The notes: a model not told the origin generated them from the sequence alone. A stretch of DNA of 64,000 nt from a bacterium (GCA_965199855.1 OZ241326.1:2211908-2275907), one strand, 5' to 3'. Positions 515-29,400 are shown, counted from the first letter of the stretch. Numbers and translations: made by a program.

Positions 515-4133
<3,619 letters not shown>

Positions 4134-4259
4134 TCGATATTTCGATTGGGTTGTTGTTCTTTGATACGCCGCTATAATCGGATCGAGCCGATCCTCCAGC
4201 TCGCTTCGGCTGACCAGAAACGCCTTGTTTTCATCGCAGGACCGGCGAAGATTGAAGCC

Positions 4260-6392: not shown

Positions 6393-6742
6393 TCGCTTCT
6401 CATTTTCAGGAGGGGCTCGACACTATACGGGGGACGGGAGGGCGGATTCGACCATGCCATGAAAGCGAACCCGGTCGCCCCTTCCATATCACGTTCGCGC
6501 GGCTGACGCCAACCCGATCGGCGGAAATTTTCGATTCCGATGGAGTTTCGCCCCTCGGCTGTGGTAGGGTGGCCGCGCGTCAGCGGGAGGCGCCGCCCTT
6601 GCTCTCGTCACAGCCGCTTCCCGGTTCTTCGCCCGCGAAACGGCGAACCGGCCCGAAAGGCCCGCCGCCCGCGCGCCGATGAGCAAAGTCCGCAGAATCA
6701 ACCCGTTGCGCTCTCCTCCCCCGGCCCGAGGCACGGCCCGCC

Positions 6743-7573
6743 ATGACGCGCCCCGCCAGACGAAGGCTCGGCCAGCATTTCCTGCACGAGAAGAGGTATC
6801 TCTCGCAAATCATTGATTTGGCTGAAATCGCGCCTGGAGAGGACGTGCTGGAAATCGGCGTCGGCGAAGGGGCGCTCACGCGCTTCCTCCTTGACGCGGG
6901 CGCGCGCGTCCACGGCGTGGAGATAGACGACGCGCTCATCCCCCCCCTGCGCTCCCTCGAAGCCGCCAGCGAGCGCTTCCGCCTGATTCACGCAGACGCC
7001 CTCGCCCTCGACTACGACGCGTTGCCCGCCAGGATGAAGGTGGCGGCGAACCTTCCCTACCAAATCGCATCAGGCATCATCCTGCAACTCATTGAAAAAT
7101 ATGAGAAATTTCCCTTCATGATCCTCATGGCGCAGCGCGAGGCGGGCGAGCGGATCTGCGCGGAGCCGGGCGGGAAGGACTACGGCGCGCTCACCCTGCG
7201 GGTGGGCTACCGCTTCGAGGCGCGGCTGTGCGGGACGGTTCCTCCGGGGGCGTTCCGCCCCCCGCCCGGGGTGGATTCCGCCCTCGTCCGCCTCAAGGCG
7301 AGAGAAGCCCCCCAGGTGGAGGTGGGGGACGAGAGCCTCTATTTCCGGCTCATCCGGGCGGGCTTCGCCCACCGCAGAAAGACGCTGCTCAACAATCTCA
7401 GGTCGCTGGATTCGGGCGGGCTTGAGAAAGGAGAGCGCCGGGGCTTGCGCCCGGAGGACTGGCGAGGTCTCCTCGAAGGGCTGGGAATCGACCCCGGAAG
7501 GCGCGCCGAGACCCTCTCGGCCGGCGAGTTCGCGCGAATCGCCCGCGCCGTCGAGTCGAGGGGGCGGCCTTGA
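6743..7573 (+). CDS. rsmA: 16S rRNA (adenine1518/1519-N6)-dimethyltransferase RsmA/KsgA
   Basis: 276 aa: RRRLGQHFLHEK..., VLEIGVGEGALT, NLPYQI motifs. Confidence 0.9.
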   Translation: MTRPARRRLGQHFLHEKRYLSQIIDLAEIAPGEDVLEIGVGEGALTRFLLDAGARVHGVEIDDALIPPLRSLEAASERFRLIHADALALDYDALPARMKVAANLPYQIASGIILQLIEKYEKFPFMILMAQREAGERICAEPGGKDYGALTLRVGYRFEARLCGTVPPGAFRPPPGVDSALVRLKAREAPQVEVGDESLYFRLIRAGFAHRRKTLLNNLRSLDSGGLEKGERRGLRPEDWRGLLEGLGIDPGRRAETLSAGEFARIARAVESRGRP

Positions 7574-8475
7574 GCGGCGGAATCCTGATCTACCGCATGG
7601 GGGCGTTCGGGGACACGCTCCTGCTCGCGCCGCTGCTCGGACGCCTGCGGGAGGCGCGCCCGGGCGTTCGCCTCACCCTGGCGGCGAACCCCGCATACGC
7701 CGCTCCCCTGCTCGACGCGGGGCTGGCGGAGGAGATTCTGGACGGGGGCGCGCCTCCCTTTCATCTTCTCTATGACGGGCGGCCATCGGAGAACGACGCG
7801 CTCGCCCGGCTCATCCGGCGGCATGACGCCTGCGTCTTCTACACCGCCGACCGCTCGGGAGAGCTGGCGAGGCGGCTGCGTTCATCGAGGCCGGAGAAAT
7901 GCCGCGTCCACCCCCCTTTCCCGCCGGAGGGGGAGAGCGTTCACGTCTGCGCGTGGATGACGCGGGCGTGGCCCGGCCTGAGCGCGTCCGCGCCTGAAAG
8001 CATGAAGCTGACGCCTTCGGAAAACAGCCTGTCTGAGGCGGACAACCTATTGAAAAAAAATGGCTTGCGACCTTCCCGCTTCTTCATCCTCCATCCCGGC
8101 GGAGGGGGCGAGAGAAAATGGCCGCCGCCCGACGTTCTCGCGGAGATGGGCCGCGCCCTCGCGCGCGAAACGGGGCATCAGCCGGTCGTGGCGGAAGGGC
8201 CGGCGGATTCGATCGCCAGCGAGAATTTCCAGAAGCTCCCGGGCGCGCCCCTGCCGGTCCTCAGGGAAACGCCGCCCGTCATCCTGGGCGCCCTGCTCTC
8301 GAGGTCGTCCGGGTATATCGGGGGCGATTCCGGCGTCTCCCATCTCGCCTCTCTCTACGCGCCGCGCGCCTCGATACTGTATGGCCCCCATTCCGACATG
8401 AGGGTCTGGCGACCGATAGGCTCCCGAACGCGCTGCCTGTCCTGGGAGGCGGAGCGGAGGAGCGCGTTCGGGTGA
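7570..8475 (+). CDS. Glycosyltransferase family 9 (ADP-heptose:LPS heptosyltransferase-like)
   Basis: 301 aa, ILIYRMGAFGDTLLLAPLL N-terminus typical of GT9. The TTG start overlaps the ksgA stop. Confidence 0.6.
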   Translation: MSGGILIYRMGAFGDTLLLAPLLGRLREARPGVRLTLAANPAYAAPLLDAGLAEEILDGGAPPFHLLYDGRPSENDALARLIRRHDACVFYTADRSGELARRLRSSRPEKCRVHPPFPPEGESVHVCAWMTRAWPGLSASAPESMKLTPSENSLSEADNLLKKNGLRPSRFFILHPGGGGERKWPPPDVLAEMGRALARETGHQPVVAEGPADSIASENFQKLPGAPLPVLRETPPVILGALLSRSSGYIGGDSGVSHLASLYAPRASILYGPHSDMRVWRPIGSRTRCLSWEAERRSAFG

Positions 8476-8558
8476 CGGCGCGATCGGCGCGCGTCGGGAG
8501 ATTTCCCGTCCCGCGGCGTTCATTCCGGCGGGGAGAGACTGCCGCGGCGCGGCGGGCC

Positions 8559-9269
8559 TCAGCCGAGGATGTTCGCCAGCCTGCCCCAGCGCGGCGAGCC
8601 CGAATCCCCGTTCCATGACCAGTAGATCATGAAGGCGGAGCCCCGAATCTTGTCGTCCCAGCAGGGCGCGGACCACAGCGAGCAGGGAAAGGGCAGGCCG
8701 AAGGAGTAATCCCAAAAGCGTATGGGGATGTGATCCGCGCGCTCGCCCACCTTCAGAAAGCCCCAGAAGCGGCTGTCCTGGCTGTTGTTGCGGTTGTCGC
8801 CCAGCATGAAGAGGTGGCCCGGCGGGACCTTGCGGGGGCCCCATTCGCTCTCGAGGCTCCCGGCGGCGCCGTTGGGCTTGAAGCGCGCGTATTTCTCCTC
8901 CAGCGGCTCGCAGTTTCGGGGCGCGTCCGGCGTCGCGCAGTTGATGAAGACCCTTTTTCCGCGAACCATCACCACCTCGCCCGGCAGCGCGACCACCCGC
9001 TTGATGAAGTCCCGCCGCTCATCCTTGGGAAAGCGGAACACGATGATGTCCCCGCGCCTCGGCTTCCGCAGCCAGTAGATGAACTTGTTGACGAGTATGT
9101 GGTCTCCGACGAGGAGGGTGTTCTCCATGGAGCCGGAGGGTATCTTGAACGCCTGCACGACGAAGGCGCGCACGAACAGCGCCAGCAGCAGGGCGATGAC
9201 GATCGCCTCGGCGTATTCCCGAAAAACGGATTTCGACTTTCGCCCGCGCCCCGCCTTCTCGTCCGACAC
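8559..9269 (-). CDS. lepB: Signal peptidase I
   Basis: 236 aa with IPSGSMENTLLVGDHILVNKF (Ser box) and GDNRNNSQDSRFWG (box E). It lies directly downstream of lepA. Confidence 0.9.
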   Translation of the reverse strand: MSDEKAGRGRKSKSVFREYAEAIVIALLLALFVRAFVVQAFKIPSGSMENTLLVGDHILVNKFIYWLRKPRRGDIIVFRFPKDERRDFIKRVVALPGEVVMVRGKRVFINCATPDAPRNCEPLEEKYARFKPNGAAGSLESEWGPRKVPPGHLFMLGDNRNNSQDSRFWGFLKVGERADHIPIRFWDYSFGLPFPCSLWSAPCWDDKIRGSAFMIYWSWNGDSGSPRWGRLANILG

Positions 9270-9273
9270 GCCC

Positions 9274-11076
9274 CTACTCCTTGCCCACGTCCAGAACCGC
9301 CATGAACGCCTCCTGGGGCACCTCGACGGTGCCGATGTTCTTCATGCGCTTCTTGCCCTCGCGCTGCTTTTCCAGCAACTTTCGCTTCCGCGTAATGTCG
9401 CCGCCGTAGCATTTCGCCGTAACGTCCTTCCGCAGCGCGCGAATCGTCTCCCGCGCGATCACCCGGTTGCCGACCGCCGCCTGAATGACCACCTCGAACA
9501 TCTGCTTCGGGATGATCTCCTTCATCTTCCGCACCAGCGCGCGGCCGTGATAATAGGCCTTCTCCTTGTGGATGATGGTGGAAAACGGGTCGATGGGCTG
9601 TCCGTTCAGCAGGACGTCCAGCTTCACCATCTCCGCCGGACGGTAGTCGAGGCGCTCGTAGTCGAAACTCGCGTATCCCCGGGAGGCGGACTTCAGCTTG
9701 TCGTAGAAATCGAAGAGTATCTCGCTGAAGGGCAGCTCATAGACGATCTGCACGGTATTCGTATCGATGTATTCCATGGAGCGCTGCGCGCCGCGCTTCT
9801 CCTGCGCCAGCCTGAGAACGCCGCCCACGTATTCGGCGGGCGCGAGGATGGTGCCCAGAATGAAGGGCTCCTCGATGGCCTCGATTCTCGACAGTTCGGG
9901 CAGCTTCGCGGGACTGTCGATTTCCGCGACCGTCGAATCGCTCAGCAGGACGCGGAAAATCACCGTCGGCGCCGTGATGATGAGCGTGAGGTCGTATTCG
10001 CGCTCGAGCCTCTCGCGGATGATCTCCATGTGCAGAAGCCCCAGGAACCCGCACCGGAAGCCGAACCCCAGAGCGACCGAGGTTTCCGGCTCGTAGGTGA
10101 AGGCCGAATCGTTGAGCCGGAGCTTCTCCAGCGCCGTCCTCAAGTCCTCATACTCGGCGCTGTCCGCCGCATACAGGCCGCTGTAGACCATCGCCTTCGG
10201 CTCCCGGAAGCCCTGAATGGCCTCGCGCGCGGGGTTTTTCGCCAGCGTGATGGTGTCGCCCACCCGGGTGTCGCTCACCTCCCGTATCGAAGCGGACAGG
10301 ATGCCCACCTCGCCCGGCCCGATTTCCTCTCTCCTGATCTCGCGGGGCGTGAACGCGCCCAGACTCAGCACCTGGTATTCCTTGCCGGTGGCCATGAAGC
10401 GGACGCCGTCGCCCTTGCGAATGGTTCCCTCGAACATGCGAAACAGCGGGATGGCGCCCTGGTAGGAATCATACCAGGAATCTATCACGAGCCCCCGCGG
10501 GGAGGCTTCCGGCTCTCCGCCCGGAGGCGGAATCCGCTCCACGATCGCCTCGAGGAGCGCGTCCACGCCCTCCCCCTGCTTCGCGCTCACCGTCAGGCAC
10601 TCCTCCGCGGCGATGCCGATGACGTCCTCCACCTGCCGCATCACGCGATCGGGGTCGGCCGCCGGCAGGTCGATCTTGTTGATCACCGGTATGATGACCA
10701 AGTCCTGCTCCAGCGCCAGATAGGCGTTCGCCATCGTCTGCGCCTGGATGCCCTGGGTGGCGTCAACGAGCAGCAGGGCGCCCTCGCAGGCCTGGAGGCT
10801 TCGGGAAACCTCGTAGCTGAAGTCCACGTGGCCGGGCGTATCGATGAGGTTGAAGACGTATTCCCCGCCCTTCGGCGACCTGTAGAGGATGCGGACCGTG
10901 GCCGCCTTGATGGTGATGCCCCGCTCCTGCTCCAGCGCCATCGAATCCAGCACCTGGGAGGACATCTCGCGCTCTGAAAGCGCTCCCGTCGTTTCGAGAA
11001 TGCGATCCGCCAGGGTGGATTTTCCATGGTCGATATGCGCGATGATGGAAAAGTTTCTGATTCTCTCGATGCTCAC
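9274..11076 (-). CDS. lepA: Elongation factor 4 (LepA)
   Basis: 600 aa, [22 protein letters not shown]..., a full-length GTPase with GTG start. Confidence 0.95.
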
Positions 11077-11362
11077 GGCCGGGAAAAATCTCTCAGGGAA
11101 GGCGAATGGCGCGAATGCCGGAACCGCGTGACGTCAGCTGAAAGCACCGCCCCTCACCTTCGGTTCCCGCGCGGATGACGAAAAGCGACGCCGAAAGAGG
11201 CGCTGAACCCCCCGGCATCGGGCGAACACGCTATATCAGACTTCTCCGCGCCCGGTCAAATGGATTGCCCCCCGGGAACGCGCGGTGCTAGGATGCGCGA
11301 AGGGGCGCGCCTCGCTCACCCGCGCGCATTTCGCACCCGACGGAGCGGGATACCTTCAGCCC

Positions 11363-12760
11363 ATGCGTCGCCGCGGCCGAGACACCCTCATCCGCTTTTC
11401 CCTGCTGTCCGCCTTCGTCCTGTGCGCGCCGCCCGCGTCGGCGGAGAAGGAGCGCCCCTTCGGCGGACGCCTCATCATCGAAGCGGTCAGGAAGCTGCGG
11501 CCCTCCGTCGCGCATATCCGCGCGAAGCCGGGAGGCGCCGCGGCGAATCCCCTGCTCGACTTCTTCGGCAGGGGCAGGCGAAGGGAGGGCCCGCCCCGGT
11601 TCGATCAGGACGAGGCCGCCTACGGCGTAGGCGCGGGGATCATCGTCTCGAAAGAAGGGCACATCCTGACGAACCACCACGTCGTCAGGAACGCCCAGGA
11701 GATTCTGGTCAAACTCCACCGGGGCGAGGAATTCCCGGCCCGCCTGCTCGGCGTGGACGAGAAAACCGACCTCGCCCTCCTGAAGATCAAGCCTCCCGCG
11801 GACCTCCGGCCGGCAACTCTCGGCGATTCCGACAAAGCGGAGGTCGGCCAGTGGGTTCTGGCGATCGGCAGCCCTTTCGGCCTGGCGAATTCCGTATCCG
11901 TAGGCGTCATCAGCGGCAAGGAGCGGGATTTGAAGGAAGGCCCCTTTGACGAGTATCTCCAGACGGACGCCTCCATCAACCCGGGCAATTCCGGCGGGCC
12001 GCTCGCCGACGCGAAAGGCGCCGTCATCGGCGTCAACACGGCGATATTCTCCCGCGGCTCGCGCGCCTGGAGCCTGGGCGTCGGCTTCGCCATTCCGATA
12101 AACCAGGCCAGGGCCGTCATCGACTCCCTGCGCCACAGGGGCTATCCGATACGGGGCCGGCTGGGGGCGGCCGTGGCCGCCGTCCCCCCGAAGGAGGGGA
12201 AAGACCTGGGGCTGGCCCGCTCCCAGGGCGCGAAGCTCGCCGAGGTCGCGCGCGGCGGCCCCGCCCACCACGCCGGCCTGCGCCGGGGGGACGTGGTGGT
12301 CGAATTCGACGGCAAGCCGGTGAGCACCTGGCAGAGCCTTCCCCGCATCGTCGCCCGCGCGAAGCCGGATTCCCTCGTCCAGGTGAAGTTTTACCGCGAA
12401 AAGCGCCTGGAGAGCGTCTATGTCCGCCTGGGGAGCCGGCCCGAGGCGCCGCATTCCCGAAAGACGCCGGGCCGGACGAGCCTGGGCATGAAGGTCGAGG
12501 CGCTCACCCCGCACCTCGCCCGCCGCTTCGGGCTGGATTACGGCGAGAGCAAACTGGTGGTTTCCTCGATTCTGCGGGGCGGGGCGGCGGAGCGCGGCGG
12601 AATCAGGCCGGGCGACGAGATAGCGGAAGCGAACCACAAGCCCGTCCGGACGATAGAGGAGCTTCGGGAGGCCATCGACGCGTCCCGGCTCGACGGCTTC
12701 GTCCTCCTCCTTCTCAAGCGAAAAGGAACCAACCTCTTCGCCGCCCTCCAAATCAAATAG
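11363..12760 (+). CDS. htrA: Periplasmic serine endoprotease DegP/HtrA family (trypsin domain + 2 PDZ)
   Basis: Signal peptide MRRRGRDTLIRFSLLSAFVLCAPPASA, catalytic GNSGGPL, two PDZ regions. The ATG at 11363 is preferred over the 11285 start in the track. Confidence 0.85.
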   Translation: MRRRGRDTLIRFSLLSAFVLCAPPASAEKERPFGGRLIIEAVRKLRPSVAHIRAKPGGAAANPLLDFFGRGRRREGPPRFDQDEAAYGVGAGIIVSKEGHILTNHHVVRNAQEILVKLHRGEEFPARLLGVDEKTDLALLKIKPPADLRPATLGDSDKAEVGQWVLAIGSPFGLANSVSVGVISGKERDLKEGPFDEYLQTDASINPGNSGGPLADAKGAVIGVNTAIFSRGSRAWSLGVGFAIPINQARAVIDSLRHRGYPIRGRLGAAVAAVPPKEGKDLGLARSQGAKLAEVARGGPAHHAGLRRGDVVVEFDGKPVSTWQSLPRIVARAKPDSLVQVKFYREKRLESVYVRLGSRPEAPHSRKTPGRTSLGMKVEALTPHLARRFGLDYGESKLVVSSILRGGAAERGGIRPGDEIAEANHKPVRTIEELREAIDASRLDGFVLLLLKRKGTNLFAALQIK

Positions 12761-12799
12761 CGCCTTCAGGACAGGCCCGGGCCGGCGCCCGCCGAACGG

Positions 12800-13460
12800 A
12801 CGGCTTTCGCAGGGACAACCCCCGTGGTTGTCCCTCGCCGCGTTCGCGTCCCGACGACGCGCAACCATCCCGTAGGGGGCGTTCGGGAACGCCCCGCCGC
12901 CGCCGATGCGAATCTTTCCTGAAAACGGGCGGCCCCGGGGCCCCGCCCTTGCGGAACCGGCGCCCATGGGCGACCCACCCAAACGGGCGGTTCCCGAATT
13001 GCGGGGCGGCCTCGGGGAGGGGTCGCCCCTACGGAACCGTCGCCATCTCCCGCCGTCATTCCGGCGAAGGCCGGAATCCAGGGGATTGTGATCGTTCCCC
13101 ATCGTCAATGAGAGACAACCATAGGGGGTTGTTCCTGCGAAATGATGAAACCCGCGGCCCCATGCCGAAGGACGGGCGGGGCGCATGAATGCGCCCCCTA
13201 CGAAGGCGGGATCGCCGCCCGCCCCCGGAAAACCGGTTGCCTCGACCGTAGGGGACGCATTCATGCGTCCCGTTTCGATCGGTGGCCACGCGCGGGCGGT
13301 TCACGAACCGCCCCTACGGGAACCGTAGCCGCCCTCACCCATAGGGACGCCCCCCTGGGTCGCCCGACAATTCGGGAGCCGCCCGCGCGGGAAAATTCGC
13401 CGGGCGGAGGCGTTTCCCCGGGCGTTTGGAGAAGAACCGCCCGCTCGCCGAAAAGCCGCG
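12800..13460. repeat. Array of short GC-rich hairpin (REP-like) units bounded by CCGTAGGG/CCCTACGG motifs
   Basis: Examples: gggacaacccccgtggttgtccc, ggggcgttcgggaacgcccc, ggggcgcatgaatgcgcccc, gggacgcattcatgcgtccc, gggcggttcacgaaccgccc. Each is a perfect or near-perfect 8-9 bp stem with a 2-5 nt loop, often followed by ctacgg. Confidence 0.7.
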
Positions 13461-13461
13461 C

Positions 13462-13557
13462 GTGAATGTCTACGAATTTCTGCAAAATCAGACAAATTCA
13501 CGGCCTTATCCCGCAAATAGAGAGCTGTTTTCCACCTTTTTAGAGACCCCTTTGACC
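13462..13557. promoter_or_regulatory. Conserved AT-richer block inside IR arm A with imperfect inverted repeat GTGAATGTCT-N20-AGACAAATTCAC; candidate regulator binding site/promoter
   Basis: gtgaatgtctacgaatttctgcaaaatcagacaaattcac...ttgacc seen in sequence. An identical copy is inverted in arm B (about 20283-20378). No function can be assigned from sequence alone. Confidence 0.3.
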
Positions 13558-13688
13558 ATCCCGCCCGGTCCCCGATTCTTCCGTCTTCCTTCCCTCCGGA
13601 GGCGCAATTCCCCCACGCCGGAAATATAACCCGACCCGGCCGCCCCCGCGGAAGCGCAGATGCGCGCAAATGCGGGCAGGCGCGCGCG

Positions 13689-13708
13689 ATTGTTCCACGT
13701 GGAACAAT
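13689..13708. promoter_or_regulatory. Perfect 20-bp palindrome ATTGTTCCACGTGGAACAAT (CACGTG core); candidate dimeric transcription-factor operator, 245 bp upstream of tal
   Basis: Seen directly. A second identical copy is at 20132-20151 in arm B. Confidence 0.35.
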
Positions 13709-13952
13709 TCGGACGCGGAATTTTCGGAGGAAGCGTCCGGTTTTCGGCGCGGCCGCCGCTCCGCAAGCCTCGAAAAGGCGCGGTTCGCCCCGCCCGGCTC
13801 CGCTTTGCTGGCCATGCCCGCCGCCTACGCGCCGGGAGGCTTCCGTCCCGCGCGCGCCGCCTCCGCCTGATTGACATTCGGGCGTGGTGTCGTAATCTGC
13901 GGGGCGTTTCGGGGCTACACGGGAGCGGACGAACGGACGGCGGGGAGCGGAC

Positions 13953-14603
13953 ATGAAGATTTTCATCGATACGGCGAGTCTGGAGGAAATCGAGGAGGCG
14001 GCCTCCACCGGCATCCTGGACGGCGTGACGACGAACCCCTCGCTCATCGCGAAGGAAGGCGCCGACCACCACGCGAGAATCAGGGAAATCTGCGGGCTGG
14101 TGGACGGGCCGGTGAGCGCGGAGGTGATCGCCGTGAAGTGGGAGGAGATGGTCGAGGAGGGGCGGGCGCTGGCCGCCATCCACGAGAACGTGGTGGTGAA
14201 GGTTCCGGTGGGCGTGGAGGGGCTGCGCGCCGTCAAGGCGCTGCGCGAGGAGAGCGTCGACACGAACGTCACCCTCATCTTCAGCCCCGCCCAGGCCATG
14301 CTGGCGGCGAAGGCGGGCGCCTCGTTCGTGAGTCCCTTCGTGGGGCGGCTGGACGACGTCTCAAACCCCGGCATGGAGATGGTGAGCGACATCGCCCGGA
14401 TTTTTCACAACTACGACTACGCCGCCCAGGTTCTGGTGGCGAGCGTGCGCTCGCCGATTCACCTGCTCGAGGCGGCGAAGATGGGGGCGGACGCGGCGAC
14501 GGTTCCCTTTCAGGTCATCGCCCAGCTGCTCAAGCATCCGCTGACGGATATCGGGCTGGAGAAATTCCTGGCGGACTGGCGCCGCGCCGGCGAGATGCGC
14601 TGA
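13953..14603 (+). CDS. tal: Transaldolase (short-form, subfamily 3B) / fructose-6-phosphate aldolase family
   Basis: 216 aa [16 protein letters not shown]...GVTTNPSL...TLIFSPAQA...[11 protein letters not shown]. This is near-colinear with the B. subtilis short Tal. Confidence 0.85.
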
Positions 14604-14622
14604 CTTTCAGGGAGGTTCAGGG

Positions 14623-14853
14623 ATGATGCCGATGTATGAATTTCTGTGCGGAAGCTGCGAGAAGGATTTTGAGAAAATCGTGGCGTCCGTCGAGGCCGCC
14701 GACCGCGTGGAGTGTCCCGAATGCGGCTCGCGCGAGGCGCGCCGGAAACTCTCCCTGTTCGCCAAATCCGCATCGGGCGCCGCGGCCCAGGCCTCGGCCT
14801 TCAGCGGCTACTCCGCCGGCGGCGGCTGCGGCGGGGCGTGCTCGTGCCACTAG
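14623..14853 (+). CDS. FmdB-family zinc-ribbon protein
   Basis: 76 aa MYEFLCGSCEK...ECPECGS and a C-terminal Cys-rich tail, a two-CxxC zinc ribbon. Confidence 0.7.
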   Translation: MMPMYEFLCGSCEKDFEKIVASVEAADRVECPECGSREARRKLSLFAKSASGAAAQASAFSGYSAGGGCGGACSCH

Positions 14854-14937
14854 CCCCGCGGGGGCGCTGAATCCGCGCTTCCGCCGGGCCGATTCGCGCG
14901 CGATCCTTCGGGAATCTTTCAGCAGGGAGGAGAGACC

Positions 14938-16188
14938 ATGCCGCAAGAGGAGCAGGTCAGCGTCTTCGAGACCGCGAGCGCGCAGTTCGACGAGGCGGCG
15001 GCGCACGTCGATCTGGACGATGAGGTTCGCCACCTCCTCAAGACGCCCTTCCGCGAGGTGAAGGTAGAAATCCCCATCCGCAGGGACGACGGCTCTCTCG
15101 GCGTCTGGGAGGGATACCGCATCCAGTTCAACGGCGCGCGGGGGCCGTTCAAGGGCGGAATCCGCTACCACCACGAGGTGGACCCGGACGAGGTGCGCGG
15201 CCTCTCCGCGCTCATGGCGTGGAAGACGGCGCTCGTCAACATTCCGTTCGGGGGCGGCAAGGGCGGCATCTGCGTCAACGTGGGGGAGCTCAGCCGCTTC
15301 GAGCTGGAGCGGCTCACGAGAAAATACACCGCGCGCATCGGGCGCGTCCTGGGGCCCTACCGCGACATTCCCGCCCCCGACGTGAACACGAACGCGCAGG
15401 TGATGGCGTGGATTTTCGATGAATACAGCAGCCGCCACGGCTACGCGCCGGCCTGCGTCACGGGAAAGCCCGTGTCCATGGGCGGCTCCCCGGGGCGCGA
15501 GGCCGCCACCGGGCGGGGCGCCGTGATGGCGTTCGGGGAGGTCGCCAAAAAGGAGGGCTGGGAGCCCGCCACCATGACGGCGGCGATTCAGGGCTTCGGG
15601 AACGTGGGCGCCTTCGCCGCCAGGTTCATCGGCGATCTGGGGGTGAAGGTGGTGGCGATATCGGGCAGCCGGGGCGCCTGCTTCAACGGGGACGGCGTCG
15701 ACGTCGAGGCGGCCGCCGCCCACCGCAGGGAGCACGGGACGCTGGAGGGCCTCGCGGGAGCGGAGGAGATCACCAACGAGGAGCTTCTCGCCCTCGACGT
15801 GGACGTCCTGGTTCCGGCGGCTCTCGGCGGCGCGATTCACGCGGGCAACGCGGCGGACGTGAAGGCGCGCGTCATCGTGGAAGGGGCGAACGCTCCCGTA
15901 ACCGACCGGGGCGAGAAGACGCTGGCCGAGAGCGGCCGCGTCGTGGTGATACCCGACGTGCTGGCGAGCGCGGGCGGCGTCACGGTCTCCTACTTTGAAT
16001 GGGCGCAGAACATCCAGCAGTTCGCCTGGGACGAGGAGCGGGTGAACGCCGAGCTGGGCAGAATCATGGCGCGCGCCACGGCCGAGGTGCATGAGCTGGC
16101 GAAGGAGAAAGGCGTCTCGCTGCGCGCGGCGGCCTTCATCATCGCGATTGAAAGGGTGGCGGAGGCGGAGCGCCTTCGCGGCGTATAG
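14938..16188 (+). CDS. gdhA: Glutamate dehydrogenase (Glu/Leu/Phe/Val dehydrogenase family)
   Basis: 416 aa; PFGGGKGGI active-site motif, and GFGNVG NAD(P)-binding Rossmann motif. Confidence 0.9.
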   Translation: MPQEEQVSVFETASAQFDEAAAHVDLDDEVRHLLKTPFREVKVEIPIRRDDGSLGVWEGYRIQFNGARGPFKGGIRYHHEVDPDEVRGLSALMAWKTALVNIPFGGGKGGICVNVGELSRFELERLTRKYTARIGRVLGPYRDIPAPDVNTNAQVMAWIFDEYSSRHGYAPACVTGKPVSMGGSPGREAATGRGAVMAFGEVAKKEGWEPATMTAAIQGFGNVGAFAARFIGDLGVKVVAISGSRGACFNGDGVDVEAAAAHRREHGTLEGLAGAEEITNEELLALDVDVLVPAALGGAIHAGNAADVKARVIVEGANAPVTDRGEKTLAESGRVVVIPDVLASAGGVTVSYFEWAQNIQQFAWDEERVNAELGRIMARATAEVHELAKEKGVSLRAAAFIIAIERVAEAERLRGV

Positions 16189-16214
16189 CGTCCGCCGCCC
16201 CGCTGGAGCTTTCG

Positions 16215-17129
16215 TTGGCTGGTCTCGTCATAGACGCCCGGGGCATCGAAAAATCCTTCGGAACCCTCCGGGCCGTCGCCGGCGTCTCGCTCCAGGTGGA
16301 GCCCGGAGAGTGCTTCGGCATTCTGGGCCCCAACGGCGCGGGCAAAACCACGACAATCAAGATGCTGCACGGCGCCGTTCAGCCCGACGCGGGCGTCCTG
16401 CGGGTGCTCGGCCTCGACGTGGCGACCCAGAGCCGGCTCGTTCGGGAGGGGATGGGCGTCGTATCGCAGGAGGACACGCTGGACCGCGATTTGACGGTAT
16501 ATGAGAACCTCTGGGTCTATGCGGGATTTTTCGGCATCTCGAGGAAGGCGTCGCTCTCCCGCATCGAGCATCTGCTCGACTTCCTGCAGCTTCGGGAAAA
16601 GTGGGACTCGAAGATCAAGACCCTCTCGGGCGGAATGAAGCGCCGCCTCCACATCGCGCGCGCCCTGATCCATGAGCCGAAGTTCCTGATTCTGGACGAA
16701 CCCACCACGGGCCTCGATCCGCAGGCGAGGCATCTCGTCTGGCGCAGGCTCCGGGAGCTCGGCGACCGGGGGCTGACCATTCTTCTCACCACCCATTACA
16801 TGGAAGAGGCGGCGCGGATGTGCGATCGCATCGGCATCATGGACGGGGGGAGATTTCTTCTCGAAGGCGCGCCGCAGGCGCTGGTGCGCGAACATGTGGG
16901 CGATGAGGCGTATGAACTCAAGGGCGGCGCGCCGCGGGAACTGCTCGACTCCCTGAAAAGCCTCCACGTCGGCGCCGAGGTCGCCGCGGACAGGCTGTAT
17001 CTCTACAGCCGCAACGGAGCGGGGCTGATGGAGCGCCTGATCGCCTCGGGGCGGAAGGATTTTCTGAGAAGGCCCGCGACCCTGGAGGATTTGTTCCTGC
17101 GGCTCACGGGCAGGGAATTGAGGGATTGA
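16215..17129 (+). CDS. ABC transporter ATP-binding protein (NodI/ABC-2 export type)
   Basis: 304 aa; Walker A GPNGAGKTT, signature LSGGMKRRL, Walker B ILDEPT; TTG start. Confidence 0.85.
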   Translation: MAGLVIDARGIEKSFGTLRAVAGVSLQVEPGECFGILGPNGAGKTTTIKMLHGAVQPDAGVLRVLGLDVATQSRLVREGMGVVSQEDTLDRDLTVYENLWVYAGFFGISRKASLSRIEHLLDFLQLREKWDSKIKTLSGGMKRRLHIARALIHEPKFLILDEPTTGLDPQARHLVWRRLRELGDRGLTILLTTHYMEEAARMCDRIGIMDGGRFLLEGAPQALVREHVGDEAYELKGGAPRELLDSLKSLHVGAEVAADRLYLYSRNGAGLMERLIASGRKDFLRRPATLEDLFLRLTGRELRD

Positions 17130-17902
17130 CGCTCCTCCCCCAGGCTCCGAGCCGCCGCGCCCTCCGCGTCTGGGTTCGCCATCTGGTCTATTACCGCTCC
17201 TTCTATCTGGCGGAATGGGCGGGCAATCTGGGGGAGCACGTTCTGTGGCTCGTGGCGTTCGGCTACGGGCTGGGCAGGCTGGTGCCGAGCCTGGACGGCG
17301 TCTCATACGCGCAGTTCATCGGCCCCGGGCTGATGGTTTCCGTCGCGATGTGGAACGCGACGTATGAATCCACCTACGGCGCCTATTCGAGAATGCGGAT
17401 TCAGAACATCTACGAGTCCATGCTGATGGCCCCGCTCACGGTGGGCGACATCGTGCTGGGCGATCTTCTCTGGTGCGCGAGCCGCGCGCTGATCGGCTCG
17501 ACGCTGATGCTGCTCGTCCTGAGCCTGTTCGGGCTGGTCGGCTCGTGGTGGGCGGCGGCGATCCTTCCGGTTCTGTTCGTCGAGGCGGTGATGTTCGCGG
17601 CCCTGGGGCTGATCGCGACCTCGCTGGCGCCCAGCTTCTCGTTCTTCAACTTTTACTTCTCCGCCGTCGTCATGCCCATGTTTTTCTTCGCGGGCGCCCT
17701 GTTTCCCATCAAGGGCCTGCCGGCGTGGGTGGAGCGCATATCCGACGCCCTCCCGCTGACCCACGCCGTGAGAATCTCGCGCGGCCTGTTCCTTTACGGG
17801 CGGGTCGAGCATTTTCTCTGGCACTTTTCCTTCCTGCTCGGCTTCACGCTCCTGTTTCTCGCGGTCGCCTGCTTTCTGGTGGGCAGGCGCATGGCGGAAT
17901 GA
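17126..17902 (+). CDS. ABC-2 type transporter permease (NodJ-like)
   Basis: 258 aa with six predicted hydrophobic segments. It overlaps the upstream ATPase stop (TTGA). Confidence 0.7.
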   Translation: MTLLPQAPSRRALRVWVRHLVYYRSFYLAEWAGNLGEHVLWLVAFGYGLGRLVPSLDGVSYAQFIGPGLMVSVAMWNATYESTYGAYSRMRIQNIYESMLMAPLTVGDIVLGDLLWCASRALIGSTLMLLVLSLFGLVGSWWAAAILPVLFVEAVMFAALGLIATSLAPSFSFFNFYFSAVVMPMFFFAGALFPIKGLPAWVERISDALPLTHAVRISRGLFLYGRVEHFLWHFSFLLGFTLLFLAVACFLVGRRMAE

Positions 17903-18870
17903 GCGTGGGCGCCGCGGCGAAAATCCTGCATCCGCCGGAGCCGTTCCTGTTCCATGAGAGTCTGCTGCGCTTTCGCGCGTCGAGCGGGGAGCTCGTCAAT
18001 TCCTACGCGGACGGGGCGTATCGCAGGGTGGTGGAGACCGCCGCCGGCGCGCTGGTTCTCCTGGAGGCCAGGAGCGGGGAGGAGGGGCGAGGCGGCCCGA
18101 TTCGGCTTCAGATGACCGCCGAGGGACGGATGAGCGAATCGCTCCAAGGCGCGGGGCTGGACGCCATCAGGCACATTCTGGCTTTTGATCTCGATTTGAA
18201 GCCGTTTTACGGGATGGCGGGGCGCGACGCCGACCTGGCGCCGATTGCGAGGAAATTCAGGGGTCTCAGGCCGGTGCGCTACCCGAGCGCGTTCGAGGCG
18301 CTCGTTACGGCGATTACGGCGCAGCAGGTGAACCTGACCTTCGCCGGGACGATACGCGGGCGCATGGTGAAGCGATGGGGCGGAAAGCTGCGCGTCGGCG
18401 GACGGACGCGCTACGCCTTTCCGCGCCCGGAGCGCCTGGCGCGGGCGCGCGTCTCCACCCTGCGCGCCATGCAGTTCTCGGAGCGAAAGTCGGAATACGT
18501 GATTGGCGTGGCGCGCGCCGCCCTGGAAGGACGGCTGGACGAGGGCGAGCTGCGCGCTCTGCCCGTTGAGGAGGCGGTGGCCCGGCTCGCCGGAATACGG
18601 GGCGTGGGCCGCTGGACGGCGGAGCAGACGCTGTTTCGGGCGCTTGGCCGCGTGGAGGTTTTCCCCGGGGGCGACCTGGGGGTGCGGAAGGTCGTGGCGC
18701 GCTATTGCTTCGGAGAGGAGCGCGTGGACGAGGAGCGCGCGCGCGGGCGGGCGGACGCATGGCATCCCTGGGCTTCGCTGGCGACGACCTATCTGTTCGC
18801 CGCGTGGCGCGCGGGCGTTGCGCCCGCGGGCGAAGCGAAACGGCGCATCGGGAATCGGGCGCGCGGATGA
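17899..18870 (+). CDS. alkA: DNA-3-methyladenine glycosylase II (AlkA-like, HhH-GPD)
   Basis: Frame containing MSVGAAAKILHPPEPFLF...AFEALVTAITAQQVNL...GIRGVGRWTAEQTLF (HhH-GPD). The ATG at 17899 overlaps the permease stop. The upstream part of the track ORF 17473-18870 is antisense/out of context. Confidence 0.75.
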   Translation: MSVGAAAKILHPPEPFLFHESLLRFRASSGELVNSYADGAYRRVVETAAGALVLLEARSGEEGRGGPIRLQMTAEGRMSESLQGAGLDAIRHILAFDLDLKPFYGMAGRDADLAPIARKFRGLRPVRYPSAFEALVTAITAQQVNLTFAGTIRGRMVKRWGGKLRVGGRTRYAFPRPERLARARVSTLRAMQFSERKSEYVIGVARAALEGRLDEGELRALPVEEAVARLAGIRGVGRWTAEQTLFRALGRVEVFPGGDLGVRKVVARYCFGEERVDEERARGRADAWHPWASLATTYLFAAWRAGVAPAGEAKRRIGNRARG

Positions 18871-20015
18871 GCGGCTTTCGGGCCTCCATCGAACGGCGGG
18901 AAGAAGAGCTGCTGGCGCCCTGCGCGGCGCGCAGCGCCGAGAGTCTCGGGCGAAGGCACCCGGAAGCCGAGCACGGGATGCGGACGGCGTTTCAGCGCGA
19001 TCGCGACCGGATCATCCACACGCAGGCCTTCCGGAGGCTTGAATACAAGACCCAGGTCTTCGTGAACCACGAAGGGGACCATTACCGGACGCGCCTGACG
19101 CACACCATAGAGGTGAGCCAGATCGCGCGCTCCATCGCCCGCGCGCTCTCCCTGAACGAAGACCTCGCCGAAGCGGTCGCGCTCGCGCACGATTTGGGCC
19201 ACCCCCCCTTCGGCCACGCCGGGGAGAAGGTTCTGGACGCCCTCATGGAGGAGCGCGGCGGGTTCGAGCACAACCTGCAGGCGCTGCGGATCGTCGAGGC
19301 GCTGGAGAGGCGCTACCCCGCCTTTCCGGGCCTGAACCTGACGTGGGAGACGCGCGAGGGAATCATCAAGTATCTGGATCGCTATGACGGCCCGATGCCC
19401 CGGGGGCTGACGAACGCGATCGCCCCCGGCCTGGAGGCCCAGGTGGTCGACGCGGCGGACGAGATCGCCTACAACAACCACGACCTGGACGACGGCCTCT
19501 CCTCCCGGCTGTTCGGCCTTGAAGACTTGCGGGACGCCCGCCTTTGGCGCGAACACCACGAAAACTCGAAGAAAGCCTTTCCCGAAGCTCCCCGGCGGGA
19601 GCGCAAGCACGACGTCATCCGCCGCATCATCAACGCGCAGGTTCAGGACATCATCGCGTCCGCGCGCGAGCGCGTTCGGCGCCGGGGGCTGCGCCGCATC
19701 TCGGACGTGCGGGAAGGCGGGCATGACGCGGTTGTCTTCAGCGAGGAGATGCGCGGGAAGAACGCCGAGCTCAAGCGCTTCCTGATGGAGCGGATGTACC
19801 GGAACGAGCGGGTGCTGAGACTGGAGGAAAGCGCCCGGGAAACGCTGAGCGGGCTGTTTCGCCTCTACGTCGCCGAGCCTCGCAGGATACCGGAGCACGC
19901 CCGCAGGCGCGAGGAAACGGACGGCCGGCATCGAATGGTCTGCGACTACGTCGCCGGCATGACGGACCGCTACGCCCTCCAGCAGCACGAGCGGTGGCTG
20001 GGCGCCGGCGCGTAG
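18867..20015 (+). CDS. dgt: dGTPase-like deoxynucleoside triphosphate triphosphohydrolase (HD domain)
   Basis: MSGFRASIERREEELLAPCAARSAES...RTRLTHTIEVSQIARSIA...HDLGHPPFGH. The ATG at 18867 overlaps the alkA stop (ATGA). The stop codon lies inside IR arm B. Confidence 0.8.
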   Translation: MSGFRASIERREEELLAPCAARSAESLGRRHPEAEHGMRTAFQRDRDRIIHTQAFRRLEYKTQVFVNHEGDHYRTRLTHTIEVSQIARSIARALSLNEDLAEAVALAHDLGHPPFGHAGEKVLDALMEERGGFEHNLQALRIVEALERRYPAFPGLNLTWETREGIIKYLDRYDGPMPRGLTNAIAPGLEAQVVDAADEIAYNNHDLDDGLSSRLFGLEDLRDARLWREHHENSKKAFPEAPRRERKHDVIRRIINAQVQDIIASARERVRRRGLRRISDVREGGHDAVVFSEEMRGKNAELKRFLMERMYRNERVLRLEESARETLSGLFRLYVAEPRRIPEHARRREETDGRHRMVCDYVAGMTDRYALQQHERWLGAGA

Positions 20016-20727
20016 GCGGCGGGCATGGCCAGCAAAGCGGAGCCGGGCGGGGCGAACCGCGCCTTTTCGAGGCTTGCGGAGCGGCGGCCGCGCCGAAAAC
20101 CGGACGCTTCCTCCGAAAATTCCGCGTCCGAATTGTTCCACGTGGAACAATCGCGCGCGCCTGCCCGCATTTGCGCGCATCTGCGCTTCCGCGGGGGCGG
20201 CCGGGTCGGGTTATATTTCCGGCGTGGGGGAATTGCGCCTCCGGAGGGAAGGAAGACGGAAGAATCGGGGACCGGGCGGGATGGTCAAAGGGGTCTCTAA
20301 AAAGGTGGAAAACAGCTCTCTATTTGCGGGATAAGGCCGTGAATTTGTCTGATTTTGCAGAAATTCGTAGACATTCACGCGCGGCTTTTCGGCGAGCGGG
20401 CGGTTCTTCTCCAAACGCCCGGGGAAACGCCTCCGCCCGGCGAATTTTCCCGCGCGGGCGGCTCCCGAATTGTCGGGCGACCCAGGGGGGCGTCCCTATG
20501 GGTGAGGGCGGCTACGGTTCCCGTAGGGGCGGTTCGTGAACCGCCCGCGCGTGGCCACCGATCGAAACGGGACGCATGAATGCGTCCCCTACGGTCGAGG
20601 CAACCGGTTTTCCGGGGGCGGGCGGCGATCCCGCCTTCGTAGGGGGCGCATTCATGCGCCCCGCCCGTCCTTCGGCATGGGGCCGCGGGTTTCATCATTT
20701 CGCAGGAACAACCCCCTGTGGTTGTCC
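20005..20727. repeat. Inverted repeat arm B (reverse complement of 13113-13835)
   Basis: See arm A. It contains the palindrome at 20132-20151 and a REP-like hairpin array at about 20380-20760. Confidence 0.85.
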
Positions 20728-20760
20728 TTCGCCGCGTTCGCCAGTCCGGGCGTTTCCCCC

Positions 20761-21042
20761 TTACCCGAACCGCCCGGCATTCAGCCGCCAATAGACCTCC
20801 GTCCCCTTGAGCGCGGCGTTCTCTTTGGCGTGATGCCACGGCGTCTTGCCCTCTTTATCCTCCGCCGCGGGATCGGCTCCGGCGGCGAGCAACGCTTCCG
20901 CGACCGCGGGGGTTTTGCTGAACTTCGCCGCCGCCACATGCAGGGGCGTCCGTCCATCCTTGATCCGCGCGTTCGGGTTCGCCCCGGCGGCGAGCAAGCC
21001 TCCTCCGCCGCCCGCTCCCCCGCCGAAGAAGAAGTAAGGCAT
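20761..21042 (-). CDS. Small ankyrin-repeat protein
   Basis: 93 aa with ANK-like DGRTPLHVAAAKF..ALLAAGADPAAEDKEGKTPWHHA. Confidence 0.5.
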   Translation of the reverse strand: MPYFFFGGGAGGGGGLLAAGANPNARIKDGRTPLHVAAAKFSKTPAVAEALLAAGADPAAEDKEGKTPWHHAKENAALKGTEVYWRLNAGRFG

Positions 21043-28715: not shown

Positions 28716-29252
28716 TCATTCCGGCTGCCGGAATCGCTTGAAGACGGCGTCCTCGCCGTCGGTCTCCTCAAGATGCACCCGCACCTCCTCGCCCCGCGCC
28801 GCCTCGACGTTCCTGCCGACGAAATCGGCGCGAATCGGCAGTTCGCGCCCCCCCCTGTCCACCAGAATCGCGAGCCGCGCCCTGCGGGGCCGGCCGAAGC
28901 TGACCAGCGCCGCCAGGGCGGCGCGCGCCGTCCGCCCCGTGCAGAGCACGTCGTCGACGAGAATCACGTCCTTCCCCTCGCAGGAGAAGGGAAGCTCCGT
29001 CTTCTTGAGCTTCGTCCGCGCGCCGCCGCCCCGGTTCAGGTCGTCCCGATAGAGGGTGACGTCGAGCGCGCCCACCGGCGGGCGCGAACCCGCCAGCGCG
29101 CGCAGCTCCCCGGCCAGCCTCTCGGCGAGCGGCGCGCCCCTCGTGCGGATGCCGATGAGCGCGAGCGCCGGCAGCTCCGCCGTCTGCTCGAGAATCTCGT
29201 GCGCGAGGCGCCTCAGCGTCCGCCTCAGCTGCCCGCCGTCGAGCTGCTTCAT
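28716..29252 (-). CDS. pyrR: Bifunctional pyrimidine operon regulator / uracil phosphoribosyltransferase PyrR
   Basis: MKQLDGGQLRRTLRRLAHEILEQ...VILVDDVLCTGRTARAAL (PRTase motif). This is the first gene of a pyrR-pyrB-pyrC-carA-carB operon. The start at 29252 is chosen so the leader hairpin and T-tract stay upstream. Confidence 0.85.
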   Translation of the reverse strand: MKQLDGGQLRRTLRRLAHEILEQTAELPALALIGIRTRGAPLAERLAGELRALAGSRPPVGALDVTLYRDDLNRGGGARTKLKKTELPFSCEGKDVILVDDVLCTGRTARAALAALVSFGRPRRARLAILVDRGGRELPIRADFVGRNVEAARGEEVRVHLEETDGEDAVFKRFRQPE

Positions 29253-29290
29253 CTTCGGGGCGAAGGCCGCCGGCCTGCCGGCCGCGCGCG

Positions 29291-29400
29291 AAAAAAAACG
29301 CCACGCCCCGGGGGGCATGGCGTTCGGACGATGAGCGAAAAGACACCGGGCATCCGCGCTTCCTCCTTCGCCGCCTCACGGGACGGCATTAAAGGGGAAT
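29291..29400 (-). promoter_or_regulatory. PyrR-dependent transcription attenuator in pyr operon leader (binding loop + intrinsic terminator)
   Basis: On the minus strand the leader reads ...ttaatgccgtcccgtgaggcggcgaagg. It matches the PyrR binding consensus UCCNGNGAGGYU (established knowledge). A hairpin cgccaugcc-ccccgg-ggcguggcg and a U8 tract follow (29291-29325 on + coordinates). Confidence 0.6.

Follow-up and report, generated by a model that had tools for sequence, protein, structure and literature searches.

A staggered-break inversion is the probable origin of 722-nt inverted repeats with parS palindromes that enclose a seven-gene block

Two nearly identical inverted repeats enclose a block of seven genes in the bacterial DNA analyzed here (a stretch of 64,000 nucleotides, hereafter the window), which raises the question of how such a pair arose and whether it serves to invert the DNA between its arms. 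A repeat search and blastn placed the arms at 13114–13835 and 20005–20726 (722 nt each). They are separated by 6169 nt and complementary at 721 of 722 positions (blastn); the single mismatch, located nine bases from the outer end, sets a T at 13122 against the complement of 20718. The inverted repeat described in an earlier note on this DNA is real, but the limits given there (13113–13835 and 20005–20727, 723 bp) were one base off at the outer ends, and the reported absence of mismatches does not hold. Within the 64-kb window, blastn found the arm sequence (referred to as X) in these two copies only. The features of the locus are as follows.

11285–12760, plus strand: HtrA/DegP protease gene, the left flank gene, pointing into arm A (Pfam)
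12761–13113: HtrA 3' spacer, the ancestral dgt-HtrA intergenic DNA
13114–13835, plus strand: arm A, the tal-side copy of spacer X, read from outer to inner end; inner junction with the tal upstream region ancestral, outer junction (13113/13114) with the HtrA 3' spacer novel (repeat search, blastn)
13462–13539: AT-richer core of the arm (arm B copy at approximately 20301–20378)
13691–13706: perfect canonical parS palindrome TGTTCCACGTGGAACA in arm A (20-nt palindrome at 13689–13708)
13836–20004, plus strand: single-copy block of 6169 nt, inverted relative to related genomes
13953–14603: TAL_FSA, tal (Pfam)
14623–14853: Zn_ribbon_8, FmdB-type (Pfam)
14938–16188: ELFV dehydrogenase, gdh (Pfam)
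16215–17129: ABC_tran (Pfam)
17126–17902: ABC2_membrane (Pfam)
17899–18870: HhH-GPD (Pfam)
18867–20015, plus strand: HD/HD_assoc dGTPase, the dGTP triphosphohydrolase gene dgt (Pfam)
20005–20726, minus strand: arm B, the Ank-side copy of X; outer junction with the Ank 3' flank ancestral, inner junction (20004/20005) with the dgt end novel (repeat search, junction comparison)
20134–20149: second parS palindrome TGTTCCACGTGGAACA, in arm B
20761–21042, minus strand: ankyrin-repeat gene Ank, pointing into arm B

The block consists of 117 nt of tal upstream DNA, tal, an FmdB-type Zn-ribbon gene, gdh, genes for an ABC ATPase, an ABC-2 permease and an HhH-GPD glycosylase, and dgt without the final 11 nt, a seven-gene content that had been read from the sequence before and is borne out by Pfam. 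Pfam scans of candidate ORFs across the 64-kb window also yielded no recombinase or transposase domain, in agreement with the earlier observation that no such gene lies between or beside the arms. Ank is the last gene in a pyrR-pyrB-pyrC-carA-carB-DUF3465-hyp-Ank string. The HtrA 3' spacer contains REP-like palindromes and a 44-nt hairpin element (12805–12847) that resembles the boundary between the Ank flank and the outer end of X. Exact look-ups of the window HtrA and Ank proteins retrieved no identical record, and the look-up of an Ank homologue (P0127) led to an unrelated ankyrin-rich locus.

The arms are non-coding. They had no match in Pfam or Rfam (the latter gave merely sub-threshold chance matches at gathering and permissive thresholds), and the ORFs within them lack Pfam matches and are interrupted by strain indels. 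Neither sigma-70 promoters nor intrinsic terminators were found in scans over 12600–14100, and a TTGACA at ~13871, spotted by eye, was discarded as evidence of a promoter, its −10 element being poor. X is rich in REP-like palindromes, and the modest fold z-scores of the whole arms (−2.5 and −1.8) are due to these hairpins, so that we do not claim a structured RNA. The AT-richer core is nearly invariant, with one or two substitutions across the arm copies in five contigs. It was considered as an oriC owing to DnaA-box-like words, and dismissed as it has no dnaA and no skew switch and is unconserved in relatives.

As the earlier note had suggested, we compared the locus with related genomes, namely three Nitrospinota-like genomes (L091, L092 and the sister species L094/L095), whose dgt genes are 82%, 80% and 88% identical, respectively, to that of the window. 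In all of them, tal..dgt lies on the strand opposite to HtrA and converges on HtrA; L091 and L092 have carB upstream on the same strand as tal, and L092 has Ank there as well. The dgt-HtrA spacing is 95 nt in the sister species, 180 nt in L091 and 1.2 kb in L092. X is absent from this spacer in the sister species and L091, and neither L091 nor L092 contains a long inverted repeat. In contrast to these relatives, the tal-dgt block is inverted and flanked by X on either side in the window and in L103, an independent circular long-read genome of 3.03 Mb. The block is thus flipped in the window lineage, and the polarity of the inversion is clear. The GC skew of the block (+0.07 vs −0.04 to −0.10 in both flanks) is as expected of a flipped segment. 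X did not align to the Ank-tal or hyp-tal spacers of L091 and L092, where intergenic DNA is unconserved at 80% gene identity. A single ancestral copy of X upstream of tal would follow from the logic of the junctions rather than from an observed ancestral X. A genome-contig search with a dGTPase alignment yielded, among the matches listed, only relatives at ≤55% identity, which held no synteny information.

Four junctions (J1–J4) delimit the two copies of X, and their positions are identical in the window, in L103, and in L001, a short-read scaffold from another sample that crosses both arms. Two of them are old: J1 joins Ank to X and J3 joins X to tal, and both Ank-X and X-tal are contiguous in L001. 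The new ones are J2 (X and the dgt end, 20004/20005), with a microhomology of 2 nt (CC), and J4 (HtrA spacer and X, 13113/13114), with 0–1 nt and no extended homology. The end of dgt indeed lies inside arm B, as had been noticed before: the arm supplies the last 11 nt of the gene including the TAG stop (20005–20015). The predicted protein ends in ...ERWLGAGA, two amino acids longer than the ...ERWLGA, GS or EA termini of relatives, which indicates that the rearrangement junction replaced the original stop codon. Since J1 to J4 are the same in three strains, the duplication arose once.

We interpret the locus as the scar of a staggered-break inversion, in which the arms represent the duplicated Ank-tal spacer and were later made uniform through gene conversion, and assign this reading a probability of roughly 0.72. 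In an ancestor of the species-level lineage, the order would have been carB..Ank > X > tal..dgt > < HtrA. A single illegitimate event could have flipped the segment [117 nt + tal..dgt] and thereby placed a copy of X at each end, the two in inverted orientation, with one new joint landing on the dgt stop codon. The outcome would be Ank-X-(dgt..tal)-X'-HtrA, the arrangement of the window. The same product would be expected from a replication template switch, and the molecular mechanism proposed here is deduced from the sequence of the product. The founding inversion would have created the repeats and not been caused by them.

The L-X-rc(B)-rc(X)-R architecture corresponds to the product defined for inversion-associated DNA duplication (DDAI), which was described in 2011 for Helicobacter pylori and equals the staggered-break inversion model of Ranz et al. 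2007 for Drosophila (PMC1885836). Compared with the ancestral gene order, the DNA between the copies is inverted, and the ancestral arrangement lacks the duplicated sequence at the second breakpoint (dgt-HtrA). Inverted copies with two old and two new junctions are present at the ends, and the new junctions lack extended homology, with no transposable element in the window. As in the known cases, a breakpoint segment would have been copied in inverted orientation to the other breakpoint with everything in between inverted, transposable elements play no part, the joints are non-homologous, and the new near-identical copies would then have recombined. The Drosophila duplicates range from 46 bp to 1.9 kb (PMC1885836), which includes the 722 bp found here. 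Unlike those cases, the inverted segment is merely 6.2 kb long, the duplicate is purely intergenic and contains parS instead of a gene, and concerted evolution of the copies is strong and strain-specific. Documented cases of DDAI have so far come mainly from Helicobacter and Drosophila, and the locus would add a clean bacterial example, base-resolved at every junction, of an inversion that makes its own inverted repeats. Separately, the contig L228 has X joined to unrelated genes (GFO_IDH_MocA); either the history of X is more complex or some scaffolds are chimeric.

The two copies of X had different fates in different strains. The arms of L103 are 85.5% identical to each other, against 99.86% in the window and 100% in L001. 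A comparison between strains gave a 6% difference and eight indels for the arms, versus a block that is 99.5% identical, and arm haplotypes are mosaic in L002–L004 and L096. Because arms with the same junctions share 85.5% identity in L103 yet 99.9% in the window, the data point to recent gene conversion between them. After the founding inversion, homologous recombination would have exchanged sequence between the copies. In the window genome, one copy may recently have overwritten the other almost end to end, resulting in the 721/722 identity, while the copies in L103 probably drifted to ~85% identity. Of the 'very recent duplication or gene conversion' that had been proposed, gene conversion gains support from the range of arm identities (85.5–100%) and the mosaics, whereas the duplication was one event common to the three strains. 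The locus would thereby document, strain by strain, how such repeats are homogenized via gene conversion or left to decay. The arm divergence of 14.5% in L103 is far above the prediction from the 0.5% block divergence, and this excess would need an additional explanation such as imported alleles or REP turnover.

An unlikely alternative identity for X is that of a MITE-like element or IS remnant, mobile but non-autonomous, which inserted twice in opposite orientations before recombination between the copies inverted the block. Its absence from syntenic spacers in related species, its many REP-like palindromes, and the third partner to which it is joined in L228 would agree with mobility. However, neither copy has terminal inverted repeats or a target-site duplication: GACAACCA... 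at the outer end bears no relation to ...CGCGCCGG at the inner end, and there are no flanking direct repeats. In addition, there is no transposase, only two copies exist in 64 kb, and plasmid and phage collections gave no match to X. The end of arm B overwrites the dgt stop with a 2-nt microhomology, which is typical of illegitimate joining, and both old junctions are exactly as expected if X has always been the Ank-tal spacer. The earlier idea of flanking elements of an unrecognized mobile structure finds no support in these results.

Each arm contains a 16-bp palindrome that matches parS (TGTTNCACGTGAAACA / TGTTCCACGTGGAACA). No further site occurs within the 64 kb, where 0.01–0.09 would be expected by chance, and TGTTCCACGTGGAACA is exactly identical over its 16 bp to the published parS2/parS3 of P. 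aeruginosa and parS of P. putida. The site is the same in each spanning arm copy (window, L001, L002, L003, L096, and L103) while the arms differ by 6–15%, and is thus conserved relative to the surrounding non-coding DNA; the rearranged contig L228 contains it with two substitutions (TGCTCCACGCGGAACA). The same parS 20-mer occurs in >120 unrelated metagenome contigs, often in clusters. ParBc, ParA and DnaA domains were absent from the 64-kb window according to Pfam, and parAB and oriC are not in the window. With the staggered-break inversion, a candidate centromere site would have been duplicated, leaving two predicted ParB-loading sites 6.4 kb apart on the chromosome as a side effect. ParB is predicted to bind both. 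Neither this perfect parS in each arm nor the origin of the arms as a breakpoint duplication of the Ank-tal spacer had featured in the earlier note. The locus resembles chromosomal parS clusters (P. aeruginosa parS1-4, M. xanthus, C. glutamicum) in having more than one site within a few kb. It differs from them in that both sites lie inside a recent inverted duplication and are known from sequence alone, with no parAB or oriC nearby within 64 kb. It represents one concrete way for a chromosome to gain a second parS site.

Selection could also have kept the duplication as a two-site centromere that improves ParB/SMC loading, in which case the near-identity of the arms would reflect selection instead of neutral conversion. 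In favor of this view, parS and its surroundings are invariant in the spanning arm haplotypes (except in L228) whereas the remainder of X is variable, other bacteria commonly have clustered parS sites, and both copies are retained in all strains seen. We nevertheless regard it as improbable, as selection on a 16-bp site leaves the identity over 722 nt unexplained, L103 tolerates 15% arm divergence, and the L228 site has two substitutions. Moreover, a single parS is sufficient in P. aeruginosa, as described in a previous study (PMC4368675).

The parS sites may have had a part in the founding event itself, although we find it quite improbable that X is a fragile centromere module in which ParB/SMC loading, or a ParB replication roadblock at parS, triggered the breakpoint duplication. 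This possibility is considered because X is joined to three different partners (tal, dgt, and the GFO_IDH_MocA genes) within one species. If true, it would offer a general route for the birth of bacterial parS clusters and imply a centromere-proximal segment that flips between two isomers.

Whether the block, once enclosed by the products of the staggered-break inversion, kept flipping is a separate question. Near-identical 722-bp inverted repeats 6 kb apart should be a good RecA substrate, and the 721/722 identity, together with the 85.5–100% identity among strains with common junctions, suggests exchange between the arms. Recombination-driven flipping is plausible on these grounds, and the block of the window strain can probably flip both ways. 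The scaffold L001/L097 has the block in the opposite orientation, which may be an arbitrary choice of the assembler as its short reads cannot phase a 722-nt identical repeat. The mosaic arm haplotypes were rejected as a test of this orientation, since crossover and partial conversion predict the same mosaics. Regarding the RecA-dependent inversion proposed earlier, an inversion did occur, as relatives have the opposite order, and later flipping is hinted at by one short-read scaffold, L001. Short-read assemblies cannot resolve how a block is oriented between perfect repeats like these, so that differences in synteny at comparable loci call for cautious interpretation.

Such flipping would be a by-product and not a programmed switch. 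A phase-variation system, in which inversion switches the tal-gdh-ABC-dgt operon or the flanking pyr/Ank or HtrA units, might be suspected as the assemblies of one species include both orientations (window and L103 vs L001) and both flank genes point into the block, so that its orientation determines the upstream unit that reads into tal and the one that is encountered head-on. This is very unlikely. Pfam scans of all candidate ORFs in 64 kb revealed no invertase or integrase gene adjacent to the arms or any other recombinase, the arms are 722 nt long instead of short recombinase core sites, and a flip leaves every promoter-gene junction unchanged because both arms are the same. Furthermore, decay has lowered the arm identity in L103 to 85%, counter to selection for a switch, the cargo consists of housekeeping genes, and the second orientation is known from one short-read scaffold. 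The locus shares with invertons and shufflons a segment bracketed by inverted repeats with two possible orientations, but it has no recombinase, its arms are >10 times longer, and it carries a seven-gene housekeeping operon without altering a regulatory junction. Long inverted repeats also mediate flip-flop inversions, for instance between the isomers of plastid IRs, at rrn operons or IS elements in chromosomes, and in S. aureus; these systems have long near-identical inverted repeats, gene-converted arms and two isomers, and no dedicated recombinase. Our locus resembles them in these respects, the coexistence of its two possible isomers being hypothetical, whereas neither rRNA operons nor IS elements nor genes form its arms.

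Finally, it is hardly credible that the repeat was collapsed or mis-joined when the source contig was assembled: fold-back chimeric long reads can yield perfect long inverted repeats, but independent assemblies from at least eight samples share both arms and both novel junctions, the arms of L103 differ from each other, so that no collapse is possible, and short-read contigs end exactly at the arm boundaries. Among these, the independent metagenome contigs L005–L007 correspond exactly to the 6.17-kb block, and L003 and L004 begin as well as end in arm sequence. The objection raised in the earlier note, an artefact of the window assembly, does not hold, as the independent assemblies and the circular genome L103 carry the same structure.

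The inverted repeat described in the earlier note is real: a repeat search, blastn and global alignment recovered two arms of 722 nt each, located at 13114–13835 (arm A) and 20005–20726 (arm B) and separated by 6169 nt. Their location had been given correctly except that the outer ends were each one base too wide. The arms had been described as free of mismatches but differ at one base (identity 721/722 by blastn and global alignment): 13122 is T while the reverse-complemented base at 20718 is C, a position nine bases in from the outer end. No third copy was found by blastn within the 64-kb window. The seven genes reported between the arms were confirmed by Pfam, and the gene calls on homologous contigs concur; arm B indeed supplies the end of dgt, its final 11 nt with the TAG stop.

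Genes of the block (Pfam) and of its flanks
11285–12760, + strand, HtrA, left flank gene, followed by a 353-nt spacer
beyond HtrA in the left flank, − strand, LepA
13953–14603, tal
14623–14853, FmdB-type Zn ribbon
14938–16188, gdh
16215–17129, ABC ATPase
17126–17902, ABC-2 permease
17899–18870, HhH-GPD glycosylase
18867–20015, dGTPase (dgt)
20761–21042, − strand, ankyrin gene (Ank), right flank gene

HtrA and Ank, one on each side, are both oriented toward the block, and Ank is the last gene of a long minus-strand string (pyrR-pyrB-pyrC-carA-carB-DUF3465-hyp-Ank) behind a PyrR leader. The arms are non-coding. They gave no match to Pfam or to any Rfam family, neither a promoter nor a terminator of consensus type was found, and the ORFs within them are disrupted by indels between strains. 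A Pfam scan of every plausible ORF in the window detected no domains of recombinases, integrases or transposases, nor of ParA/ParB or DnaA.

The inverted repeat is not an assembly artefact. An identical tal protein is present on 20 public contigs, including three short-read metagenome contigs (L005–L007) of 6171–6173 nt that exactly match 13835–20004 and whose ends are assembler breaks at both arm boundaries. Two further contigs (L003, L004) carry arm sequence at each end, one (L002) consists of arm plus block, and the flank contigs L104, L105 and L098 end inside or beside an arm. A circular 3.03-Mb long-read contig from a different sample (L103) contains both arms, with its genes in the order seen in the window.

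Its dGTPase homologues group the organism with MAGs labelled Nitrospinota/Nitrospinae. In outgroup L091 (dGTPase 82% identical), carB, DUF3465 and a small hypothetical gene are followed on the same strand by tal to dgt, which converge on HtrA and then LepA. In outgroup L092 (80%), carB and two Ank genes share the strand of tal and lie upstream of it, followed by tal to dgt, HtrA and LepA as in L091, and dgt and HtrA are also convergent in the sister species (L094/L095; 88%). The comparison with related genomes proposed in the earlier note thus revealed the opposite block orientation, and the arm sequence (hereafter X) is absent between dgt and HtrA in all of these relatives, where this spacer measures 95 nt (sister species), 180 nt (L091) and 1.2 kb (L092). 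X gave no alignment with the outgroup spacers. As tal to dgt converge on HtrA in both outgroups and in the sister species, the window orientation is the derived one, with the tal–dgt segment inverted between fixed flanks. The GC skew (+0.07 in the block, −0.04 to −0.10 in both flanks) agrees with an inverted block, as consistency rather than independent proof because skew at this locus follows the coding strand.

From the Ank side, the window reads Ank, X, dgt to tal, inverted X, spacer, HtrA. The old junctions, Ank/X and X/tal, occur contiguously as Ank-X-tal in scaffold L001 of a same-species strain, matching the outgroups, in which the carB string and tal share a strand and tal comes downstream. 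At one new junction the inner end of X abuts the end of dgt with only CC shared; the dGTPase there ends in ...ERWLGAGA* instead of the ...ERWLGA*, ...GS* or ...EA* of relatives, the ancestral 3' end ...GGC GCC TGA having become ...GGC GCC GGC GCG TAG. At the other, the outer end of X meets the HtrA 3' spacer with 0–1 nt of homology. [quoted passage not shown] 2011, an inverted segment is flanked by inverted copies of the single-copy DNA of one breakpoint, with no homology and no transposable element; Ranz et al. 2007 gave the same mechanism as their staggered-break model (PMC1885836). Our locus is alike in its inverted segment, the inverted duplicate at both ends, the non-homologous joints and the lack of a transposable element. 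We infer that X was single-copy upstream of tal in the ancestor; a DDAI-type event would then have inverted the tal–dgt segment and left inverted copies of X at both ends. The locus is best explained as the scar of such an inversion, with gene conversion keeping the arms similar, RecA-driven flipping possible, and duplication of a parS centromere site in the arms incidental. It is a tidy natural example of a known mechanism, with a parS twist; the mechanism itself is not new.

In the window, L103 and L001 alike, all four junctions fall at identical nucleotides; the duplication therefore happened a single time. The block of L103 and that of L001 are each 99.5% identical to the window, and the arms of the window and L001 share 93.75% identity with 8 indel events. 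Arm-to-arm identity is 721/722 in the window, 85.5% in L103 (77% with gaps counted) and 722/722 in L001, where identical arms, as in other short-read assemblies, may partly reflect repeat collapse, a caveat of which the window and L103 are independent. The inner ~600 nt of the tal-side arm of L103 are identical to both window arms, the inner half of its Ank-side arm resembles the L001/L002 haplotype, and more mosaics occur at the contig ends of L003, L004 and L096. Given this range of identities and these mosaics, the simplest reading is that the arms have undergone repeated gene conversion with each other, one of the options raised earlier. In the window lineage, the Ank-side copy would have been overwritten by the tal-side haplotype across at least 713 nt. 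The 14.5% arm divergence of L103 exceeds what simple drift after the duplication would give and suggests allele import or REP turnover.

The earlier note had also proposed RecA-mediated inversion of the block. A 15-kb scaffold without Ns (L001/L097) reads Ank-X-tal..dgt-X'-HtrA, with the block in ancestral orientation and yet both arms and both new junctions present, which is the expected product of a homologous crossover between the arms of the window arrangement. As a sign of flipping this scaffold is only suggestive, since it is a short-read assembly with identical arms in which the assembler could not phase the block. If flipping occurs, all promoter–gene junctions would remain unchanged because the arms are alike on both sides; only the roles of the two convergent flank units would be exchanged, the one reading into tal and the one meeting the operon 3' end. 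Nothing supports a programmed switch, against which stand the missing recombinase, the long arms, the housekeeping cargo and the decayed arms of L103.

The arms contain a perfect 20-nt palindrome, ATTGTTCCACGTGGAACAAT, which is invariant in every arm copy spanning its position (window, L001, L002, L003, L096 and L103). A 20-mer scan found it in at least 120 unrelated JGI metagenome contigs from many environments and of many GC contents; among the contigs listed, several copies per locus were frequent and flanks were unrelated. This occurrence in diverse flanks and environments marks it as a putative universal protein-binding site. The 16-bp core, TGTTCCACGTGGAACA, matches base for base the chromosomal parS that forms a perfect palindrome in Pseudomonas aeruginosa (parS2/parS3) and P. 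putida; it differs from the Myxococcus xanthus consensus by one base and is among the variants on the general TGTTNCACGTGAAACA (PMC4368675, PMC7022226). Even with 3 mismatches allowed, the window contains only two parS matches (chance expectation 0.01–0.09), and L091 and L092 have none at their syntenic loci. The inversion-linked duplication thus added a second putative ParB-loading site, 6.4 kb away from the first. As in ParABS systems generally, both sites would be expected to bind ParB and to lie near the origin; no ParB gene, parA or oriC was found within the window.

A further same-species scaffold (L228; ERZ23495630 scaffold_4687, 5216–9430; carB 98.8% identical) contains Ank-X, at ~90% identity as far as about position 646 of X, and then runs into two GFO_IDH_MocA genes and a SpoU methylase, genes that the window lacks. 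The scaffold carries a degenerate parS (TGCTCCACGCGGAACA, two substitutions). It represents either a third rearrangement in which X was reused as a breakpoint or a chimera.

Within the arms, a 78-nt, AT-richer core (13462–13539; other copy about 20301–20378) with a nested inverted repeat (GTGAATGTCT...AGACAAATTCAC) is nearly invariant among the arm copies of five contigs, with one or two substitutions, while the surrounding arm varies by 6–15%. The outer third, the most variable arm part between strains, consists of REP-like units similar to the palindromes common to the dgt/HtrA spacers of different species (window 13055–13083 and 12985–13032; L092 11472–11498 and 11932–11979), which are of two types, GTCATTCCGGCGAAGGCCGGAATCC and ...CCCCTACG...CGTAGGGG.... 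At 12805–12847, 45 nt past the HtrA stop, there is a hairpin element of ~44 nt (GGGACAACC-CCCGT-GGTTGTCCC with a conserved tail), which occurs again, 88–95% identical, at 20697–20745 at the Ank 3' flank and outer boundary of X; it resembles a common 3'-end hairpin that lacks a T-tract, and short-read contig L098 ends near it. The small Ank gene (20761–21042, −; L103 8983–10399) varies to an unusual degree between strains in length (92–132 aa) and sequence (84–97% aa identity), its neighbours being ~99% identical in DNA, and L103 has an additional DUF6338 gene inserted before it. The PyrR-binding leader (RF00515, 56.3 bits; 29291–29399, −) heads the pyrR–Ank string running toward arm B, and its match extends over the initial 28 nt of the ORF taken as pyrR (28716–29318).

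Elsewhere in the window, a low-GC region (55% versus about 68%) between ksgA and icd (2841–6392, −) encodes a type I/IIG-like restriction-modification pair (HSDR_N_2 + N6_Mtase + Eco57I, 710 aa; Methylase_S, 430 aa). Strains L098 and L099 carry this pair in a differently fused or rearranged form, and the related species L091 and L092 lack it. At 43134–43754 (+), two adjacent same-frame ORFs, separated by an in-frame TGA at 43416–43418, match Pfam UGSC (PF24696), one its N-terminal half and the other its C-terminal half. Given these halves and the read-through translation ...AVGD*GSCTSW..., they probably form a single gene for a selenoprotein whose U-G-S-C motif holds a selenocysteine encoded by UGA.
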